This document shows, piece after piece, positions 12,079 through 52,833 of a DNA stretch of 64,000 nucleotides. The notes under the pieces were generated by a model. It searched no databases, was not told where the DNA came from, and saw only the letters and a program-made list of their open reading frames with translations. Each line of letters opens with the position of its first letter. Positions within the stretch are counted from its first letter, which is position 1. A program made the translations under genes and the position numbers. Source of the stretch: Candidatus Aminicenantales bacterium (GTDB taxonomy: Bacteria > Acidobacteriota > Aminicenantia > Aminicenantales > UBA8522); contig JBAQGA010000189.1 in assembly GCA_049287565.1 (NCBI GenBank), positions 15,626-79,625 on the forward strand, given 5' to 3'.

Positions 12079-12900
12079 CTAGCTGGTTCCTTTCTCCCGC
12101 CTCAACTTCTCCCGGGCTTCGGCGAACATCGGCTCGGCGTAGTCAGACGGCCAGGTGCGGTCCTCGAAACTCCGTTTCTCGATCAGCGTCAAGAAGCCCT
12201 TGAACTCCACGAAGTACGAACCATAGATGTGAAAGCTGTCCACGAGGTCGGCATAGCGGCCGACACGCACGGGACGGCCGGTCTTTTCCGCGATCCTTCC
12301 GGCGATGACGCGCTGCAGGTCGGTCAGGGCAAAGACATTCATGTAGGCCGCCTTGTAGGCGTCTCGCGAACGCCAGTGGGTATTCATGTTGAGGACGAGG
12401 CCATCCTTCTCGTCCGGAAGCAGCCGGCACCAGACCCGCTGCAGGCAGGGCGGGTCGTAGGTCGGGGGGTCATGCTTGGGGTTCCAGGTGATGGCCTGGG
12501 CCCGGCGGGAATGCCCCGCCTGGCTGAGTTTCTTGACGATATAGTTGACCTGGTCGATAACCGTGCCTTCGATCTCGTAGGCGAACAGGCGCTTGTGGTA
12601 AGTGTATGTCCACTTGCCTTCTTCCGGCGCGATCCAGTGGTCATGGACGCCGTCGACGACCTCCTGCCGATAGATCTCGAGGTCCTCCAGGCCGCCCGGG
12701 AAGGCGCGGTGGATGCGCGGCTCCAGGAAGGGGTCTTCCACCACCCACATCATCGTGCAGTCTTTGCTCGGCGGGTCGCCCGGCTTGTCGTATTCGGTCT
12801 CGATGGCCACCCCTTTCTCCCAGCAGGCCAGGACGGCCTTCTCCCAGGCTTCGGGCAAGGTCTTTCCGTGGACACAGAGCGTTGGAATCAGCCCTTGCAT
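12079..12900 (-). CDS. Thymidylate synthase (ThyA) superfamily protein, divergent
   Basis: SRRAQAITWNP...DPPC...HWRSRDAYKAAYMNVFALTDLQRVIAGRI aligns by eye with the ThyA SRRIIVSAWN...APCH...[20 protein letters not shown] core including the catalytic Cys; N-terminal half diverged. Confidence 0.55.
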   Translation of the reverse strand: MQGLIPTLCVHGKTLPEAWEKAVLACWEKGVAIETEYDKPGDPPSKDCTMMWVVEDPFLEPRIHRAFPGGLEDLEIYRQEVVDGVHDHWIAPEEGKWTYTYHKRLFAYEIEGTVIDQVNYIVKKLSQAGHSRRAQAITWNPKHDPPTYDPPCLQRVWCRLLPDEKDGLVLNMNTHWRSRDAYKAAYMNVFALTDLQRVIAGRIAEKTGRPVRVGRYADLVDSFHIYGSYFVEFKGFLTLIEKRSFEDRTWPSDYAEPMFAEAREKLRREKGTS

Positions 12901-12907
12901 CGGAACC

Positions 12908-13252
12908 TCACTTCTTCAGGAAAGCAGACACGAGGACCACGACTCCCACGGCGATCAGGATGAGCGGCCACCACTCCATGAACCCGATGAGATAAGAACC
13001 GCCGATGATCGCCAGGATGAGGCCGGCGGTGAGCCGTCCGCTGATCCCGCGCCGGCCTTCAGCCGAGAAAGCCCGGAGGAGCGCTTCGAGCAGGAATATC
13101 CCGCCCAATCCCACCAAAAAATAAGCCCACCAGTCCGCCCAGGAGATGCGGTCCATTTCGGTCAGGAGAAAGAGGACGCCGAGAAGGATTAAGATAAGGC
13201 CACCCGCTATTTTGGGATGATAATCCTGTTTTGTTTTGATATTTTCGTTCAT
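12908..13252 (-). CDS. Small membrane protein (LiaI/LiaF-TM-like), hypothetical
   Basis: 114 aa, 3-4 hydrophobic helices, no recognisable catalytic motif. Confidence 0.4.
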   Translation of the reverse strand: MNENIKTKQDYHPKIAGGLILILLGVLFLLTEMDRISWADWWAYFLVGLGGIFLLEALLRAFSAEGRRGISGRLTAGLILAIIGGSYLIGFMEWWPLILIAVGVVVLVSAFLKK

Positions 13253-47400: not shown

Positions 47401-48822
47401 ATGGAGCTCCTCAGAAAAAGTGATTTCGTCTGGGAAATTCCCCCCCACGGGGAGATGAAGGTCCCGGCGACGATCTATGCCTCGTCGCGCCTGTTGGAAA
47501 GCGTCAGGAACGACCTGACCCTGCAGCAGGCCCGGAATGTCGCCTGCCTGCCGGGCATCCAGCGGATGTCCTACGTCATGCCCGACGGCCACCAGGGCTA
47601 CGGCTTTCCGATCGGCGGGGTGGCGGCCTTCGATCTGGACCAAGGGATCATCTCGCCGGGAGGGGTTGGCTACGACATCAATTGCGGGGTGAGGCTGCTG
47701 CGGACTGATTTCTCGGAGAGAGACATCGCCGCGAAACGGAAGGAGCTCCTGGCCGAGATCTTTAAGGAGGTGCCGGCCGGAGTGGGGAAGGGCGGGATCA
47801 CCCGGCTCAGCCGGAACGTGCTCAAGGATATCCTGATCAAGGGCGCCGAATGGGCCGTCGAGAACGGCTACGGTGCCAAGGACGACCTGCTGATGACCGA
47901 GGAATACGGCCGGATGAAGGACGCCGATCCCGCCGGGGTTTCGCCACGCGCTCTGGAAAGAGGCATCCCCCAGCTTGGTACGCTCGGCGCGGGAAACCAC
48001 TTTTTGGAAATCCAGAAGGTCTCCGATATCTATGACCAGGCACTGGCTCGAATTTTCGGCATCCGGGCCATCGGCCAGGTTATGGTCATGATCCACTGCG
48101 GCAGCCGCGGCCTCGGCCACCAGGTCGCCACCGACTATATCGAGCTCATGGAGAACAGGTTCGGGACACGGGGGCTTCCCGACAGGGAATTGATCAATGC
48201 GCCCGTCCGGTCGCCGCTCGGCCGGCAGTATTACAAGTCCATGTGCGCCGCGGTTAATTACGCTTTCGCCAACCGCCAGATGATCGCCCACTGGGTTCGG
48301 GAAGTCTTTTCCAGGGTCATGGGCTGCGCCAAGGATATGAGTCAGGTCTATGACGTCTGCCACAACGTCGCCAAGATCGAAAGGCATCTGATCGAAGGGA
48401 AGGAGCGCGAGGTCTGCGTCCACCGCAAGGGTGCGACCCGGAGCTTCGGCCCGGGTCGGCCGGAGATCCCCGAGGTTTACCGGCCGCACGGTCAGCCGGT
48501 GATCATCCCCGGCAGCATGGGGACGGCATCCTATCTTCTTGTCGGTACCGCGGAAGCCGAAGGATTGAGTTTTAGCTCGACGGCCCACGGCGCCGGAAGG
48601 CTCATGTCCCGGCATGAGGCGCTTCGCCGCTTCCGCGGCGAGCAGATCCGCGACGAGCTGCAGAGGAAGGGGATCGAGCTCCAGTCGACGAGCTGGAAAG
48701 GGGTGGCCGAAGAAGCGCCAGGCGCCTATAAGGATGTAGACGAAGTGGTCAGGGTTTCCCACGAGGTTGGGATCGGCCGGCTGGTCGCCCGGGTCGTCCC
48801 GATGGGAGTGATGAAAGGATAA
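47401..48822 (+). CDS. rtcB: RNA-splicing ligase RtcB
   Basis: MPDGHQGYGFPIGGV and NHFLE... metal-binding His motifs; 473 aa; directly downstream of archease. Confidence 0.9.
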   Translation: MELLRKSDFVWEIPPHGEMKVPATIYASSRLLESVRNDLTLQQARNVACLPGIQRMSYVMPDGHQGYGFPIGGVAAFDLDQGIISPGGVGYDINCGVRLLRTDFSERDIAAKRKELLAEIFKEVPAGVGKGGITRLSRNVLKDILIKGAEWAVENGYGAKDDLLMTEEYGRMKDADPAGVSPRALERGIPQLGTLGAGNHFLEIQKVSDIYDQALARIFGIRAIGQVMVMIHCGSRGLGHQVATDYIELMENRFGTRGLPDRELINAPVRSPLGRQYYKSMCAAVNYAFANRQMIAHWVREVFSRVMGCAKDMSQVYDVCHNVAKIERHLIEGKEREVCVHRKGATRSFGPGRPEIPEVYRPHGQPVIIPGSMGTASYLLVGTAEAEGLSFSSTAHGAGRLMSRHEALRRFRGEQIRDELQRKGIELQSTSWKGVAEEAPGAYKDVDEVVRVSHEVGIGRLVARVVPMGVMKG

Positions 48823-49510: not shown

Positions 49511-51217
49511 CTACCTCAGCTTCTTCTTGAGCCGGCTCCAGGGGAGACAGTTCAAGATGTCCTTTTTTTCCAGCCAGGCGCGCCGCGCGATGCCGACGCC
49601 GAAGCGCATCATCCCGAGCCCCTCGGCCGAATGAGTATCCGTGCCGAGCGAGATCATGACACCGAGGTCCCTGGCTCGCTTGAGATAGAACTCGTTGAGG
49701 TCCAAGCGGTCGTAGTAAGAATTGAGCTCGAGGGCCTTACCGAGGCGCCGGGCGCCTGCCAGGACGGCCTCCAGGTCGACCTCATATCCCTCCCGCCCCG
49801 AGATCAGTCGGCCCGTCGGGTGGCCGATGATGTCAAGATGGGGATTCTCCATGGCCTTGAGCATCCGGGCGGTGACGTTCTTCTTGAATCCGGAGTGGAT
49901 CGATCCCACGACGACGTCGAGCCGGGCCAGGAGGTGATCGGGGAAGTCGAGCGAGCCGTCGGCCAGGATATCCATCTCCGTCCCCTTCAGAAGCCGGATT
50001 CCCTTCAACCGTCTATTGAGCGCCTCGATCTCCTTCATCTGCCGGCGGAGCCGGTCGGGCGTCAGACCGCCGGCATACTTAGCCGCCTGGCTGTGGTCGC
50101 AAATGGCGATGTAGGTGTAGCCGCGCCGGCGAGCGAGATCGGCTAGGCCCGAGAGGCTGACATGGCCGTCGCTCCAGTCCGAATGGACGTGGAGGTCGCC
50201 CCGGATATGGGCGTTAGCGATGAGATCCGGCAGCCGGCCTTCGAGGGCCAGTTCGATTTCGCCCCGGTCCTCGCGCATCTCGGGCGGGATGAAAGGAAGG
50301 CCCAGGACGGCGTAGACCTCGCTCTCGTCCCGGCCGGCGATTTTCCTGGAGCCGCGGAAGACGCCGTACTCGGAGATCTTGAGCCCTTTGTCCTTGGCCA
50401 GGCCGCGGAGCTTGATATTGTGGGCTTTTGAGCCGGTGAAATACTGGAGGGCGGCCCCGTACTCCTGGTCGGCGACGATGCGGAGGTCGACCTGGCGCTC
50501 ACCTGTCTCGGTCGCGATCATGACCGAGCCTTTTGTTGTGCCCGCTGCGAGAACACGGCTGATTCTGGGGAACCGGGTGAAATAGCGGACGATCGAGGCG
50601 CCGTCCTTTCCGCCGGCCAGGATATCGATATCGCCGACGGACTCCTTCATCCGGCGGAGCGAACCGGCCGGGGAGAGGCGGCCGATCCCCGGAGCGCCGG
50701 CCAGATAGGCGATGATGTCCTCGGCCACGGCCAGGGCCTCGTAGATGGGGATCCGCTCCTGGGCTTTCTCGTAGATTTCGATCCCTTTGCGGATGTTCTC
50801 CACTTTCTTGTCGCCCATTCCGTGGAGGGAGGCGAGGGTGCCATCCCGGATAGCCCTTTTCAGGTCGGCGATTCCCTGGACGCCGAGCTCTTTCTGCATC
50901 AGGTGGACCGTCTTGGCGCCGAGATTCTGGACGTTGAGGAGCTCGAAGAGCGATTCGGGGATACCGGAGAGGGCGTCCCGGTGTTTTTTCATCCGGCCGG
51001 TCTGGACGTATTCCTCGATCTTCGAGGCGATGCCGCTGCCGATGCCCTCGATCTCCTCCAGCCGCTTTTCGCGGGCGACGGTCTCGATGTCTTCGCTCAG
51101 GTCCTCGAGAATGCGGGCGGCCTTGCGGTAGGCGAGGATTTTAAATGGCAGTTCTCCCTTGATCTCCAGCGCGTCGGCGATACGGGAAAAAATCGCGGCC
51201 ACTTCCTTGTTTCTCAT
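49511..51217 (-). CDS. polX: DNA polymerase X family protein with C-terminal PHP phosphoesterase domain
   Basis: N-terminal MRNKEVAAIFSRIADALEIKGE...FKILAYRKAAR HhH PolX signature; C-terminal HVHSDWSDG PHP motif. Confidence 0.85.
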   Translation of the reverse strand: MRNKEVAAIFSRIADALEIKGELPFKILAYRKAARILEDLSEDIETVAREKRLEEIEGIGSGIASKIEEYVQTGRMKKHRDALSGIPESLFELLNVQNLGAKTVHLMQKELGVQGIADLKRAIRDGTLASLHGMGDKKVENIRKGIEIYEKAQERIPIYEALAVAEDIIAYLAGAPGIGRLSPAGSLRRMKESVGDIDILAGGKDGASIVRYFTRFPRISRVLAAGTTKGSVMIATETGERQVDLRIVADQEYGAALQYFTGSKAHNIKLRGLAKDKGLKISEYGVFRGSRKIAGRDESEVYAVLGLPFIPPEMREDRGEIELALEGRLPDLIANAHIRGDLHVHSDWSDGHVSLSGLADLARRRGYTYIAICDHSQAAKYAGGLTPDRLRRQMKEIEALNRRLKGIRLLKGTEMDILADGSLDFPDHLLARLDVVVGSIHSGFKKNVTARMLKAMENPHLDIIGHPTGRLISGREGYEVDLEAVLAGARRLGKALELNSYYDRLDLNEFYLKRARDLGVMISLGTDTHSAEGLGMMRFGVGIARRAWLEKKDILNCLPWSRLKKKLR

Positions 51218-51312: not shown

Positions 51313-52833
51313 ATGAAGGTCGTTCTAGCGGGTTACAATGTCGATAAAGAGGTCATCGACGACCTCAAGCGCCATTCCCCGCCGCGGGACGACGTAACGC
51401 CGGAGACTTTGTCCGCGTCCTACGCCCGCATTTCCCGCGATCCCCGCCCGGCCGACGAGCTCCGGGCCGTCGCCCGCCGTGAGGTGGAGCGGGCCCGCCG
51501 CTCCAACCAGACCATCATCTTCAAAATGGGGCACCACTCGGTGGCCGAACATGCCGTCTTCAATTTCGATATCATCGGCCTGAGCCGGTTGGCCCTGGAG
51601 GAGATCGAGAAGTTCCGGCTCTGCTCCTACACCGAAAAGTCGCAGCGCTACATCATGCTGGGCGATGATTTCGTCGTCCCCGAAGAGGTCCGGAAAGCGC
51701 GGCTGGAGAGGGTCTTCCTGAAGACCATCCGGGCACAGAACGCTCTCTACCACTCCCTTTACTCCAGATTGAAGCCATACCTTTTTATTAAATACAAGGA
51801 CCTCGCTCAAGACCCCCGGAACCACCCTGTCCTCGAAGGCTGGGCGAAAGAGGACGCCCGGTACGTGGTCAGCCTAGCGACCGAGGGCCAGGTCGGCCTG
51901 ACCATCAACGCCCGTAACCTCGAGCTCCTGATTCGGCGGTTTGCCGCCAAAAAAATGGCCGAGCTCCGGGAACTGAACCAACGGATCTACCGGCTGGCCA
52001 AGGAAGTCGCCCCCTCCATCATCCTTTTCACCGAGGCGTCGGATTTTGACGCCCGGACGTATGGGGAGCTGGAGGATGCGGCCCGGACCCTTTTTGAGAG
52101 GACGAAAGGCCGACCGAGGAAAGAGTCTCCCGCCGTCCGGAGCGGTGAGGAGTCCGTATCCTTGGCGGACACGACACCGGGGGGAGACGACCGGATCCTA
52201 GCGGCCATCCTCCATACGGCCAGCTCGATGCCCTACGAACAGGGCCTGAGGAGAGTCCGGTGGATGACACCGGCCGAGAAGAAGGATCTGGTCAAGACGG
52301 CCTTCCGCCGCCAGGAGTTTTACGATTTCCCCCTCCGCGAATTCGAATTTGCCGACCTGACCTTCTCGCTGGTCGTCTCGGCTTCCTGCTTCGCCCAGCT
52401 CAAGCGCCACCGTATGGCCACGCTGACCTGCCAGAGATATGATCCCGCGCTCGGGGTCACTGTGCCACCGACTGTTGAGGAGGTTGGCGCCGAACCCGAG
52501 TTCCGGCGGATGGTCGGCCAGACGGAAGAAACGCACGCGCTACTTCAAAAAAAGATCGGACCGGAGGCGGCCGCTTACGTGCTGATGAACGCACATCGCC
52601 GCCGCGTCCTGTTCAAAGTCAATGTCCGGGAACTCTATCACATCTCCCGGCTCCGCGAAGATCCCACGGCGCAATGGGAGATCAGGGAGGCCGTCGGCCG
52701 GATGTCCGCGCTGGCCCGTAAGGAAGTGCCCTTGAGTTGTCTTCTCCTCGGAGGGAAAAACCGGTATCCCGGCATCTACCGAAAAGTATTCGGCATGAAT
52801 CCCAGGTTGTCCTCGCCCAAGCTCCTCAAATAA
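51313..52833 (+). CDS. Tandem-duplicated flavin-dependent thymidylate synthase (ThyX)-like protein
   Basis: The first half has GHHSVAEHAVFNF...KFRLCSYTEKSQRY, which is ThyX-like with a Ser but RHR replaced by KFR; the second half has LKRHRMATLTCQRY and AQWEIRE, which is ThyX-like with RHR intact but Ser replaced; 506 aa is about twice ThyX size. Confidence 0.6.
   Translation: MKVVLAGYNVDKEVIDDLKRHSPPRDDVTPETLSASYARISRDPRPADELRAVARREVERARRSNQTIIFKMGHHSVAEHAVFNFDIIGLSRLALEEIEKFRLCSYTEKSQRYIMLGDDFVVPEEVRKARLERVFLKTIRAQNALYHSLYSRLKPYLFIKYKDLAQDPRNHPVLEGWAKEDARYVVSLATEGQVGLTINARNLELLIRRFAAKKMAELRELNQRIYRLAKEVAPSIILFTEASDFDARTYGELEDAARTLFERTKGRPRKESPAVRSGEESVSLADTTPGGDDRILAAILHTASSMPYEQGLRRVRWMTPAEKKDLVKTAFRRQEFYDFPLREFEFADLTFSLVVSASCFAQLKRHRMATLTCQRYDPALGVTVPPTVEEVGAEPEFRRMVGQTEETHALLQKKIGPEAAAYVLMNAHRRRVLFKVNVRELYHISRLREDPTAQWEIREAVGRMSALARKEVPLSCLLLGGKNRYPGIYRKVFGMNPRLSSPKLLK

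Follow-up and report, generated by a model that had tools for sequence, protein, structure and literature searches.

Thymidylate synthases of the methanogen type (NCBIfam model TIGR03283; e.g., ORF59 of Methanobacterium virus PhiF1) are the closest described relatives of the protein analyzed here. The characterization of thymidylate synthases from archaea has been called "scarce" (PMC9931769). Going by its title, the report on the Methanobacterium enzyme describes it as "putative" (Krone 1994, via PMC9931769), and in archaea the enzyme class still has this status. In the literature searched, no report was found of a purified member of the clade making dTMP.

Phage hydroxymethylases of the ThyA superfamily have been studied in more mechanistic terms. 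In T4 dCH, Asp145 activates the hydrating water and the D145N variant is inactive, Ser94, which corresponds in tertiary structure to Val93, binds a water, and the C-terminal lid of ThyA is absent (PMC6400193). Where E. coli has Leu143, an acidic residue (L143D/E) correlates with hydroxymethyl products, a bulky hydrophobic residue there is thought to keep water out, and Asn at the position of Asn177 corresponds to uracil over cytosine (PMC13326640). Near the genes of phage hydroxymethylases, a dTTPase gene, the gene of a dedicated dNMP kinase or hypermodification genes are found (PMC8989533). As for the coexistence of ThyA and ThyX, both are found together in Mycobacterium genomes (PMC3352284), in Mycobacterium tuberculosis as two unrelated thymidylate synthases at separate loci (PMC3352284, PMC2386288), and of genomes in general it has been stated that "some have both" (PMC1971073).

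The ThyA-like gene and its family

The gene is located at positions 12079..12900 on the minus strand of the window (the whole analyzed stretch of DNA, 64 kb) and encodes 273 aa plus stop from an ATG start codon. Its codon-position GC (0.61/0.41/0.84) agrees with that of the other window genes. A Shine-Dalgarno ribosome-binding site, GAGG (12906..12909, minus strand), can be read 5 nt before the ATG and overlaps the TGA stop codon of a small ORF situated immediately upstream (12908..13252, minus strand; gap 7 nt). According to the Pfam match, the product of this ORF, 114 aa in length, is a small membrane protein containing a LiaF-TM domain; related JGI contigs also have the ORF upstream of the homologue, and the two genes are probably co-transcribed. 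A Pfam scan of the window also showed genes for glutamate dehydrogenase, serine dehydratase and a two-component system near the ThyA-like ORF. For Aminicenantes, an operon tie to genes for folate or nucleotides was rejected, since the neighbors are unrelated and synteny extends only among the closest relatives. A prophage or recent-transfer origin was rejected as well, because GC content and codon usage fit the window and homologues occur Aminicenantes-wide. The label of thymidylate synthase is already in the public record and is not new: the identical protein MFZ2054690.1 in the NCBI database bears the name "thymidylate synthase", and the IMG annotation is the same.

Membership in the ThyA superfamily, which the original prediction had proposed by eye, was confirmed by Pfam PF00303 (Thymidylat_synt; residues 87-230, 38.5 bits, cut-off 24.3) and by hhalign comparison of the family profile with E. 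coli ThyA (96.9% probability, residues 76-231). The protein has the thymidylate synthase fold, in which the central sheet carries the catalytic Cys. Its top NCBIfam match is TIGR03283, with query residues 9-228 aligned to model positions 2-196 of 201, and the score of 113.9 bits lies below the cut-off of 174.55. Other members of the family reach 100-154 bits on this model, and the TIGR03283-positive controls (P0278-P0285), taken from a homologue search that was seeded with the PhiF1 methanogen-type enzyme and gave 9 proteins, reach 186-245 bits. The models of canonical ThyA (TIGR03284/PRK01827) give only 17-31 bits against cut-offs of 108-405 (for TIGR03284, 23.6 against 108.35). Searches with the HMM of the query's family gave the highest mutual scores with TIGR03283 members (86-121 bits), followed by the SPO1 dUMP hydroxymethylase (55), E. 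coli ThyA (51.5) and T4 dCH (32.5). In a neighbor-joining tree the methanogen-type enzymes are the neighbors of the query's family; this tree is crude, with two canonical ThyA sequences only and without bootstrap, and does no more than back up the HMM scores. A viral fold search in BFVD returned generic thymidylate synthase matches only. Judging from these sequence comparisons, the protein falls outside canonical bacterial ThyA and belongs to a very large sister family of TIGR03283, which agrees with the "archaeal-type" option named in the original prediction. Since the score is under the TIGR03283 equivalog cut-off, the functional annotation is one transferred from a sister family.

The methanogen-type enzymes are homologous to the query over the full length, share with it an N-terminal half shorter than that of bacterial ThyA, and have in common with it the motifs YTY-x-x-R, [D/E/H]-x-P-C-L, R-S-x-D and S-x-H-I-Y and the Asn at the N177 position. 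The query differs from them in being about 55-60 aa longer, in the loop T-x-Y-D-x-x-x-D-P-x-S-x-D at the site of the ThyA Arg21 loop, in two additional helices at the C-terminus, which carry a conserved Arg248, and in having Glu80 where the methanogen enzymes have Gln. Canonical ThyA (E. coli and L. casei TS) has only 14-20% identity with the query, with the catalytic Cys, SRR, R-S-x-D, Asn177, His207, Tyr209 and Tyr94 in common; the N-terminal half, previously described as unlike bacterial ThyA, indeed cannot be aligned by sequence, and approximately E. coli residues 66-78 are missing. Among the phage enzymes, SPO1 gp29 and T4 gp42 have Asp at the Leu143 position as in the query, and SPO1 gp29 additionally shares the Asn at the N177 position and the Y-x-x-R-L motif; the query's Asn at the N177 position is Asp in T4 dCH. 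Neither a closest relationship to SPO1 gp29 nor, by ORF clustering and Pfam scans of the window's genes, a phage or hypermodification context was found, and, in contrast to these phage enzymes, the query is encoded in a cellular, housekeeping setting.

The family comprises 223 clusters at 50% identity (E < 1e-30), and its hosts, mostly bacteria as opposed to the methanogens of TIGR03283, belong to Aminicenantes, Planctomycetota, Verrucomicrobiota, Omnitrophota, CPR, DPANN and Crenarchaeota. A very large archaeal-type ThyA family lying below the curated equivalog cut-off is thereby brought out; no biochemically characterized member was found in the literature searched. The best 120 homologues are 79-93% identical to the ThyA-like protein (66-91% for ThyX), and the gene is under strong purifying selection. 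A pattern scan of GTDB genomes, which covers approximately half of the family and gives taxonomic breadth and not frequencies, detected at least 120 loci, with a true homologue at each of the 120 listed; the presence of DPANN and CPR lineages with reduced genomes among them suggests a core function. In some homologues, inteins are inserted exactly before the catalytic Cys. Inteins at such sites are typical of essential enzymes of replication and nucleotide metabolism. Gene order gives further support: in Phycisphaerae and Sedimentisphaerales, the homologue is located on the same strand as genes for NrdR and an ATP-cone protein.

Active-site residues and the predicted reaction

Conservation of residues was counted in 104 representatives of the 50%-identity clusters. 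The core motifs indeed occur where they had been described earlier, namely, SRR at residues 131-133, WNP at 139-141, DPPC at 149-152 and HWRSRD at 175-180. According to the alignments, the predicted catalytic nucleophile is Cys152 (E. coli Cys146; codon 12445..12447, minus strand), which is present in 102 of the 104 sequences. The SRR motif Ser131-Arg132-Arg133 (12502..12510, minus strand) corresponds to E. coli Arg126/Arg127, the arginines through which ThyA holds the partner subunit's dUMP phosphate (R132 in 100/104, R133 in 97/104). Arg177-Ser178-Arg179-Asp180 (12361..12372, minus strand) matches E. coli Arg166, Ser167 and Asp169, with R177 in 101/104, S178 in 103/104 and D180 in 102/104. 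His224-Ile-Tyr226 (12223..12231, minus strand; H224 in 96/104, Y226 in 91/104) is equivalent to His207/Tyr209, which contact the deoxyribose 3'-OH. The segment Tyr99-Thr100-Tyr101-His102-Lys103 (12592..12606, minus strand) contains the YTY motif common to methanogen-type ThyA, Tyr101 being equivalent to E. coli Tyr94 and Thr100 to Val93 (Y99 in 101/104, T100 in 93/104, Y101 in 103/104).

The selector of uracil over cytosine is Asn188 (E. coli Asn177; codon 12337..12339, minus strand), which is Asn in 100 of the 104 aligned sequences; both the uracil-specific Asn and the pterin-orienting Asp (D169, here Asp180) are thus in place. A cytosine-specific hydroxymethylase was rejected on the ground that the N177 position has Asn and not Asp (PMC13326640, PMC6400193), and a flavin-dependent 5-hydroxy-dCMP synthase (RB69 gp48, HY126 AfhB) on the ground that the D169 and N177 positions are Asp and Asn.

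In the hhalign comparison, the register at residues 76-84 conflicts with the helix order of the AF2 model, and the equivalents of Glu58, Trp80, Trp83 and Arg21 were left unplaced; His86 probably stands in place of Trp80. The alignable nucleotide-binding and catalytic residues, as read from the sequences, are near-invariant in the family, which does not extend to the Arg21 and Glu58 equivalents that could not be placed. A check of the folate and dUMP-phosphate ligands, suggested in the original prediction, therefore gave a divided result: R132, R133, R177, S178 and Asp180 are kept, and the Arg21 loop is replaced, with no Arg21 equivalent identified. A pseudogene or inactive copy was rejected, since both the catalytic residues and the whole sequence are strongly conserved.

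Taken together with the family placement, these residues make it probable that the gene product is a functional thymidylate synthase belonging to the archaeal (methanogen-like) ThyA branch and that the gene was vertically inherited in Candidatus Aminicenantes; the most likely function is dTMP synthesis. From the observed fold, placement and conservation we infer the chemistry, cofactor and product as follows. By analogy with classical ThyA, the enzyme would be a folate-dependent homodimer, in which the dUMP phosphate is gripped by Arg177, Ser178 and, from the partner subunit, Arg132' and Arg133', the deoxyribose 3'-OH is held by His224 and Tyr226, and the O4/N3 edge of uracil is read by Asn188. 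The thiolate of Cys152 would attack C6 of dUMP, and 5,10-methylene-tetrahydrofolate, its pterin oriented by Asp180, would transfer the methylene onto C5. Tyr101 would then take off the C5 proton via a water, and the pterin hydride would reduce the exocyclic methylene, giving dTMP and dihydrofolate. The enzyme would operate beside a tandem ThyX, an arrangement that parallels the mycobacterial pair of ThyA and ThyX.

Coexistence with ThyX and the folate genes of the window

The ThyX gene (51313..52833, plus strand) encodes a tandem two-domain protein of 506 aa in which PF02511 (Thy1) matches twice (212 bits), and TIGR02170 gives 136 bits over two domains against a cut-off of 87.9. A protein of 100% identity is listed by NCBI as FAD-dependent thymidylate synthase. 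The tandem ThyX represents a fusion with complementary degenerate motifs; on this sequence evidence, it is apparently intact. The predicted coexistence with the ThyA-like gene is thus real, the two genes lying 39 kb apart and not adjacent, and they also occur on one contig in a related genome. The presence of ThyA and ThyX in one genome is unusual but has precedents; in mycobacteria, however, ThyA is canonical and ThyX has a single domain, whereas the present pair combines an archaeal-type ThyA with a tandem-fused ThyX. Against the main reading, a second dTMP synthase is formally redundant in a genome with a complete ThyX.

The original prediction took the coexistence as a hint that one of the two enzymes makes a product other than dTMP. 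This step finds no support, given the intact alignable residues of the ThyA-like protein, the methanogen-type thymidylate synthases as its nearest family, the ThyX score above the cut-off and the mycobacterial precedent. Clustering with archaeal-type ThyA with all residues intact, together with an inactive ThyX, had been named as the outcome that would speak against the idea; the family does cluster next to archaeal-type ThyA and its alignable residues are intact, but ThyX is apparently intact too. Three points keep the idea alive, namely, the sub-cut-off TIGR03283 score, the Asp at the Leu143 position and the absence, in the literature searched, of a report on a purified clade member that makes dTMP. 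If the protein is a plain thymidylate synthase, the gene is an ordinary, correctly annotated housekeeping gene of a candidate phylum, and Aminicenantes are one further lineage with both ThyA and ThyX.

As noted earlier for dihydrofolate reductase, no FolA-type gene was detected in the 64-kb window by tblastn, nor was one found in the 8-kb loci of at least 120 homologues. This absence is hardly informative, since the window makes up a small part of the genome, and the same applies to the 8-kb loci. PurN is encoded in the window (222.8 bits).

The folate side of the pocket and other possible reactions

On the folate side, the protein shows several differences from bacterial ThyA: Leu143 is replaced by Asp149, His147 by Leu, Gln165 by Trp and probably Trp80 by His86, the equivalents of G173 and F176 diverge too, and a ThyA-type C-terminal tail is absent, with the two helices carrying Arg248 in its place. 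Cofactor binding is accordingly expected to differ in detail. One unlikely reading goes further and regards the protein as a true dTMP synthase that uses a modified pterin, in the way that methylene-H4MPT has been proposed for methanogen ThyA, or does not release dihydrofolate, which would explain a tolerance of FolA lack. The divergence of the pterin side (at the equivalents of L143, H147, Q165, G173 and F176) and the different C-terminus are consistent with it, as are the published accounts in which methanogens use H4MPT or sarcinapterin for making dTMP (PMC9723798, PMC9012536, PMC9931769) and the absence of FolA-type genes from the window and from the loci of at least 120 homologues, which is, however, uninformative at 64 kb or 8 kb. 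Against it, the hosts are bacteria with folate-type enzymes, the window contains PurN and ThyX, no hint of methanopterin synthesis was found, and Asp180, the ligand of pterin N3/2-NH2 in ThyA, is conserved.

The second reading concerns Asp149 (codon 12454..12456, minus strand), which stands where E. coli has Leu143 and T4 dCH has Asp145; in the family, this position is D in 59, H in 18 and E in 12 of the 104 sequences. In genomes that keep ThyX, the ThyA-like enzyme would then be a cellular dUMP hydroxymethylase, or would complete catalysis by means of some nucleophile or reductant in place of the folate hydride, the methylene being trapped by water or another nucleophile, and dTMP would come from ThyX alone. 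We consider this quite improbable. Asp149 and Asn188 do reproduce the pair found at the same columns in SPO1 gp29, the residue pattern of a dUMP hydroxymethylase, and the water activation by Asp145 of T4 dCH and the correlation of L143D/E with the product (PMC6400193, PMC13326640) point the same way. The hydroxyl of Thr100 beside the catalytic Tyr is comparable to Ser94 of T4 dCH, the ThyA-type C-terminal lid is missing, SPO1 gp29 outscores the query on the methanogen-type HMM (84 against 72 bits), and ThyX is apparently intact here and co-conserved in a second genome.

However, D, E or H at the Leu143 position and the Thr also occur in proteins that pass TIGR03283 (215-245 bits) and are therefore traits of the clade. 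To our knowledge, methanogens have no ThyX. The Asp149 feature thus appears to be a clade marker and no pointer to a different reaction. The protein lacks the bulky hydrophobic residue expected of a thymidylate synthase at this position, as do the TIGR03283-passing proteins, and this expectation may not be a defining one for the archaeal branch. As far as can be read from the alignments, the archaeal-type ThyA clade shares with the phage hydroxymethylases the acidic residue at the Leu143 position, the hydroxyl by the catalytic Tyr and the absence of the C-terminal lid; such a clade-wide acidic residue limits the trust that can be placed in this marker, derived from phage work, for telling hydroxymethylating from methylating enzymes.

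Further evidence for thymidylate synthase and against hydroxymethylation is that the query's family has a housekeeping-like character, occurs very widely and is conserved by vertical descent, and its HMM favors methanogen-type thymidylate synthases over SPO1 gp29. Phage-type companion genes were not found either: no phage nucleotide-pool or hypermodification genes recur near the homologues (ORF clustering, among the 120 loci listed), and Pfam scans of the window's genes found no phage nucleotide-pool genes near the query. We know of no cellular role of 5-hmdUMP. If the hydroxymethylase reading were true, 5-hydroxymethyl-dUMP or a derivative would be made by free-living bacteria of several phyla.

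An enzyme for another nucleotide (dCMP, CMP or UMP) or an inactive or regulatory paralogue is highly improbable: the CMP hydroxymethylase MilA was nearly level with thymidylate synthases in the profile search against PDB (58.3 and 63.5 bits), but Asn188 argues against cytosine and Asp180 against the flavin 5-hydroxy-dCMP synthases (PMC13326640), Ser178, His224 and Tyr226 are kept as in deoxynucleotide enzymes, and the near-invariant catalytic Cys and phosphate arginines, with the 79-93% identity of the best 120 homologues, exclude a decaying or inactive copy.

The thyA-like gene and its protein family

The thyA-like ORF (12079-12900, minus strand) starts with ATG and encodes a protein of 273 aa. 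Upstream lies a small ORF (12908-13252, minus strand) for a 114-aa LiaF-TM membrane protein; it ends 7 nt ahead of the thyA-like ATG, and its stop codon overlaps the GAGG ribosome-binding site of the thyA-like gene. The GC content at the three codon positions (0.61/0.41/0.84) is typical for genes of the window. A match to PF00303 (thymidylate synthase) above the cut-off was found in Pfam for residues 87-230, and searches of PDB sequences returned only thymidylate synthases (TS) and CMP hydroxymethylase. The ORF is a genuine gene, and the catalytic-core motifs named in the original prediction are present in it.

The NCBI database contains the exact protein (MFZ2054690.1) under the title [quoted passage not shown]. 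Among its best 120 homologues (79-93% identity), all named ones belong to Aminicenantes and are called thymidylate synthase; the protein is thus an already annotated member of a known enzyme kind. Since the base composition is uniform throughout the window and the named homologues are from Aminicenantes, the gene looks vertically inherited and housekeeping, which argues against its recent import. In addition, the thyA-like genes of three MAGs designated "uncultured Eubacteriales bacterium" (L049, L082, and L098) share 83-90% identity with that of Aminicenantes, and two of these MAGs (L049 and L082) also have the Aminicenantes gene order; the bins are probably mislabelled.

The top curated match of the protein was TIGR03283, the NCBIfam equivalog of methanogen-type thymidylate synthase (113.9 bits, model positions 2-196 of 201), with a score below the cut-off of 174.55; canonical ThyA models gave no more than 31 bits. 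Members of the query family from other lineages also remained under the cut-off (100-154 bits), whereas relatives (P0278-P0285) of ORF59 of a Methanothermobacter virus, annotated as methanogen-type thymidylate synthase, passed it with 186-245 bits. The profile of the query family scored these methanogen-type controls at 86-121 bits, SPO1 gp29 (phage dUMP hydroxymethylase) at 55 bits, E. coli ThyA at 51.5 bits, and T4 dCMP hydroxymethylase (T4 dCH) at 32.5 bits, and a simple neighbour-joining tree agreed with this order. By these sequence comparisons, the protein belongs to a large family that is sister to methanogen-type ThyA and branches deeply, apart from canonical ThyA. The archaeal type, one of the options in the original prediction, was therefore the right one, although the protein itself falls short of the equivalog threshold.

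Of 1.84 billion cluster representatives searched, 1223 matched at E ≤ 1e-3 and 223 at E ≤ 1e-30. Scanning of GTDB species genomes with a degenerate DNA pattern for the RS[RN]D...MN motif detected at least 120 loci, and all 120 of those listed contained a true homologue. The taxa represented included Planctomycetota (Pirellulales, Sedimentisphaerales, Phycisphaerae, Brocadiaceae), Aminicenantes and other Acidobacteriota, Verrucomicrobiota, Omnitrophota, Armatimonadota, Clostridia, one CPR bacterium, and archaea (DPANN, Crenarchaeota, one Asgard archaeon). It deserves attention how large and widespread this subfamily is in bacteria and archaea, given that it is not known to have a characterised member and is missed by the curated equivalog model.

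With an HMM of methanogen-type ThyA, SPO1 gp29 (gene 29; L123:14101-15252) scored 84 bits, the query 72 bits, and E. coli ThyA 46 bits; the Y-G-E-R-L-R motif is also shared by SPO1 gp29. The SPO1 hydroxymethylase may be derived from the archaeal-type branch.

Active site and probable reaction

Residues were counted in 104 representatives of 50%-identity clusters, with E. coli ThyA equivalents taken from alignments. The catalytic Cys152 (C146) is conserved in 102/104 sequences, Arg132 and Arg133 (R126 and R127) in 100/104 and 97/104, Arg177 (R166) in 101/104, Ser178 (S167) in 103/104, Asp180 (D169) in 102/104, Asn188 (N177) in 100/104, His224 (H207) in 96/104, Tyr226 (Y209) in 91/104, and Tyr101 (Y94) in 103/104. 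At the N177 position, Asn indicates a uracil substrate and Asp a cytosine one, while Asn at the D169 position marks flavin-dependent 5-hydroxy-dCMP synthases (PMC13326640). Under these rules, Asn188 argues against a cytosine substrate and Asp180 against the 5-hydroxy-dCMP synthase type, so that the substrate is predicted to be dUMP and the protein would not be of the hydroxylase type. The protein is probably a functional archaeal-type thymidylate synthase that would methylate dUMP by the classical ThyA mechanism, with ThyX acting in parallel.

Comparison of the predicted structure gave scores of 22.0 with a flavin-dependent dCMP hydroxylase (9iqc), 21.7 with the MilA CMP hydroxymethylase, 18-19.3 with canonical TS, and 17.3 with T4 dCH. 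The N-terminal half had been described as unlike bacterial ThyA; this is true of its appearance, but in the model it is still a TS fold in a shortened form. Unlike in ThyA, the final ~45 residues form two helices in place of the C-terminal tail, with Arg248 kept in 84/104 representatives, and a conserved T-x-Y-D-x-x-x-D-P-x-S-x-D loop stands where ThyA has its Arg21 loop. For residues 76-84, the hhalign register conflicts with the model's helix order. Among the active-site residues, those equivalent to N177, D169, R126/R127, R166, and S167 are conserved, but equivalents of Glu58, Trp80, Trp83, and Arg21 were not placed. That the protein makes dTMP with an atypical cofactor, or binds its cofactor in an atypical way, appears unlikely. 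Archaeal thymidylate synthases have seldom been characterised experimentally, the Methanobacterium enzyme is described as "putative", and cofactors were assigned by inference (PMC9931769, PMC9012536, PMC9723798); the functional annotation of the branch as a whole is thus based on homology and cell-extract work.

The position of Leu143 is occupied by a bulky hydrophobic residue in methylases and by Asp or Glu in hydroxymethylases (PMC13326640, PMC6400193); in T4 dCH, Asp145 activates the hydrating water, and D145N is inactive (PMC6400193). The query has Asp149 here, in a register anchored by the adjoining Pro-Pro-Cys, and the family contains Asp in 59, His in 18, and Glu in 12 of the 104 representatives. 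In addition, Thr100 replaces Val93 of E. coli ThyA. The Asp149/Asn188 pair is shared with SPO1 gp29 and at first sight favours the non-dTMP product hinted at in the original prediction. However, all seven TIGR03283-passing proteins share these traits, with D, E, or H in place of Leu143 and Thr preceding the catalytic Tyr, which indicates that the feature is ancestral to the archaeal-type branch and, as judged from these alignments, not a sign of a changed product. The hint of other chemistry thus lacks support, and a cellular dUMP hydroxymethylase or other methylene-trapping enzyme is slightly less probable still than a cofactor variant. The occurrence of this "hydroxymethylase marker" across presumed methylases of the archaeal branch is worth keeping in mind. 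Use of another substrate, or an inactive paralogue, is very improbable.

Non-methylase signatures are present in two phage proteins annotated as thymidylate synthases. In Bacillus phage G gp319 (L124:365-1411), the N177 and L143 positions are both Asp, as in dCMP hydroxymethylases; in Mycobacterium phage Candle gp74 (L126:482-1480), the D169 position is Asn, which marks 5-hydroxy-dCMP synthases, with Asn retained at N177.

Coexistence with ThyX, gene context, and inteins

The ThyX gene (51313-52833, plus strand), located 39 kb from the thyA-like gene, encodes 506 aa with two Thy1 domains, as predicted; the protein scores above the ThyX equivalog cut-off and has a 100% identical entry in NCBI. 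Its N-terminal half (KFRLCSYTEKSQRY) has lost RHR and retained S-x-R-Y; its C-terminal half (RHRMATLTCQRY) has retained RHR and lost the Ser, and the motif there is shortened by two residues. In ThyX, residues of each active site are contributed by different subunits. The complementary degenerate motifs suggest a fused pseudo-dimer with half as many active sites and, together with the equivalog score, allow ThyX to be taken as functional rather than inactive. Among the best 120 relatives, identity ranges were tighter for the thyA-like protein (79-93%) than for ThyX, which is kept at 66-91% across Aminicenantes and Acidobacteriota. A related genome contains both genes on one 112-kb contig, ~47 kb apart, so their coexistence is maintained and is no assembly accident. 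Mycobacteria also carry ThyA and ThyX (PMC3352284, PMC2386288), and "some have both" (PMC1971073). No FolA-type DHFR was detectable in the 64-kb window, in line with the original prediction, and neither ThyX nor FolA was found within 8 kb in any of the 120 loci listed.

In several homologues, an intein is inserted exactly before the catalytic Cys, e.g., DPA/CFCAG...SHN/CLQSFW in P0125 and P0135 (slashes mark the junctions); other long representatives (650-736 aa) are P0138, P0168, P0186, P0220, and P0236. Such insertions are typically seen in essential proteins of replication and nucleotide metabolism. Among the papers listed in a literature search, none dealt with natural ThyA inteins.

In Aminicenantes, the thyA-like gene lacks functional neighbours that are conserved; only in the closest relatives is it preceded, as here, by a response regulator, a small ORF, glutamate dehydrogenase, and the LiaF-TM ORF, in this order. 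The LiaF-TM/thyA-like pairing is retained in related contigs (L127, 2646-2993). In Phycisphaerae and Sedimentisphaerales, a conserved series of same-strand genes begins with a membrane-anchored ORF, followed by the thyA-like gene and then by genes for a PpiC-like protein, NrdR, and an ATP-cone protein, the last three named by reading the sequence without a family search. This block, which weakly ties the thyA-like gene to deoxynucleotide metabolism, occurs in L001, L004, L005, L017, L021, L028, L035, L038, L086, L105, and L117, among other loci. Its membrane-anchored ORF (196 aa) is apparently different from LiaF-TM and abuts or overlaps the thyA-like start; genes read in the same way as riboflavin synthase and PdxA lie upstream, divergently transcribed.

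Just upstream of ThyX are genes of an RtcB-family RNA ligase (47401-48822, plus strand) and a PolX DNA polymerase/3'-5' exonuclease (49511-51217, minus strand); PolX also adjoins ThyX in a related JGI contig.
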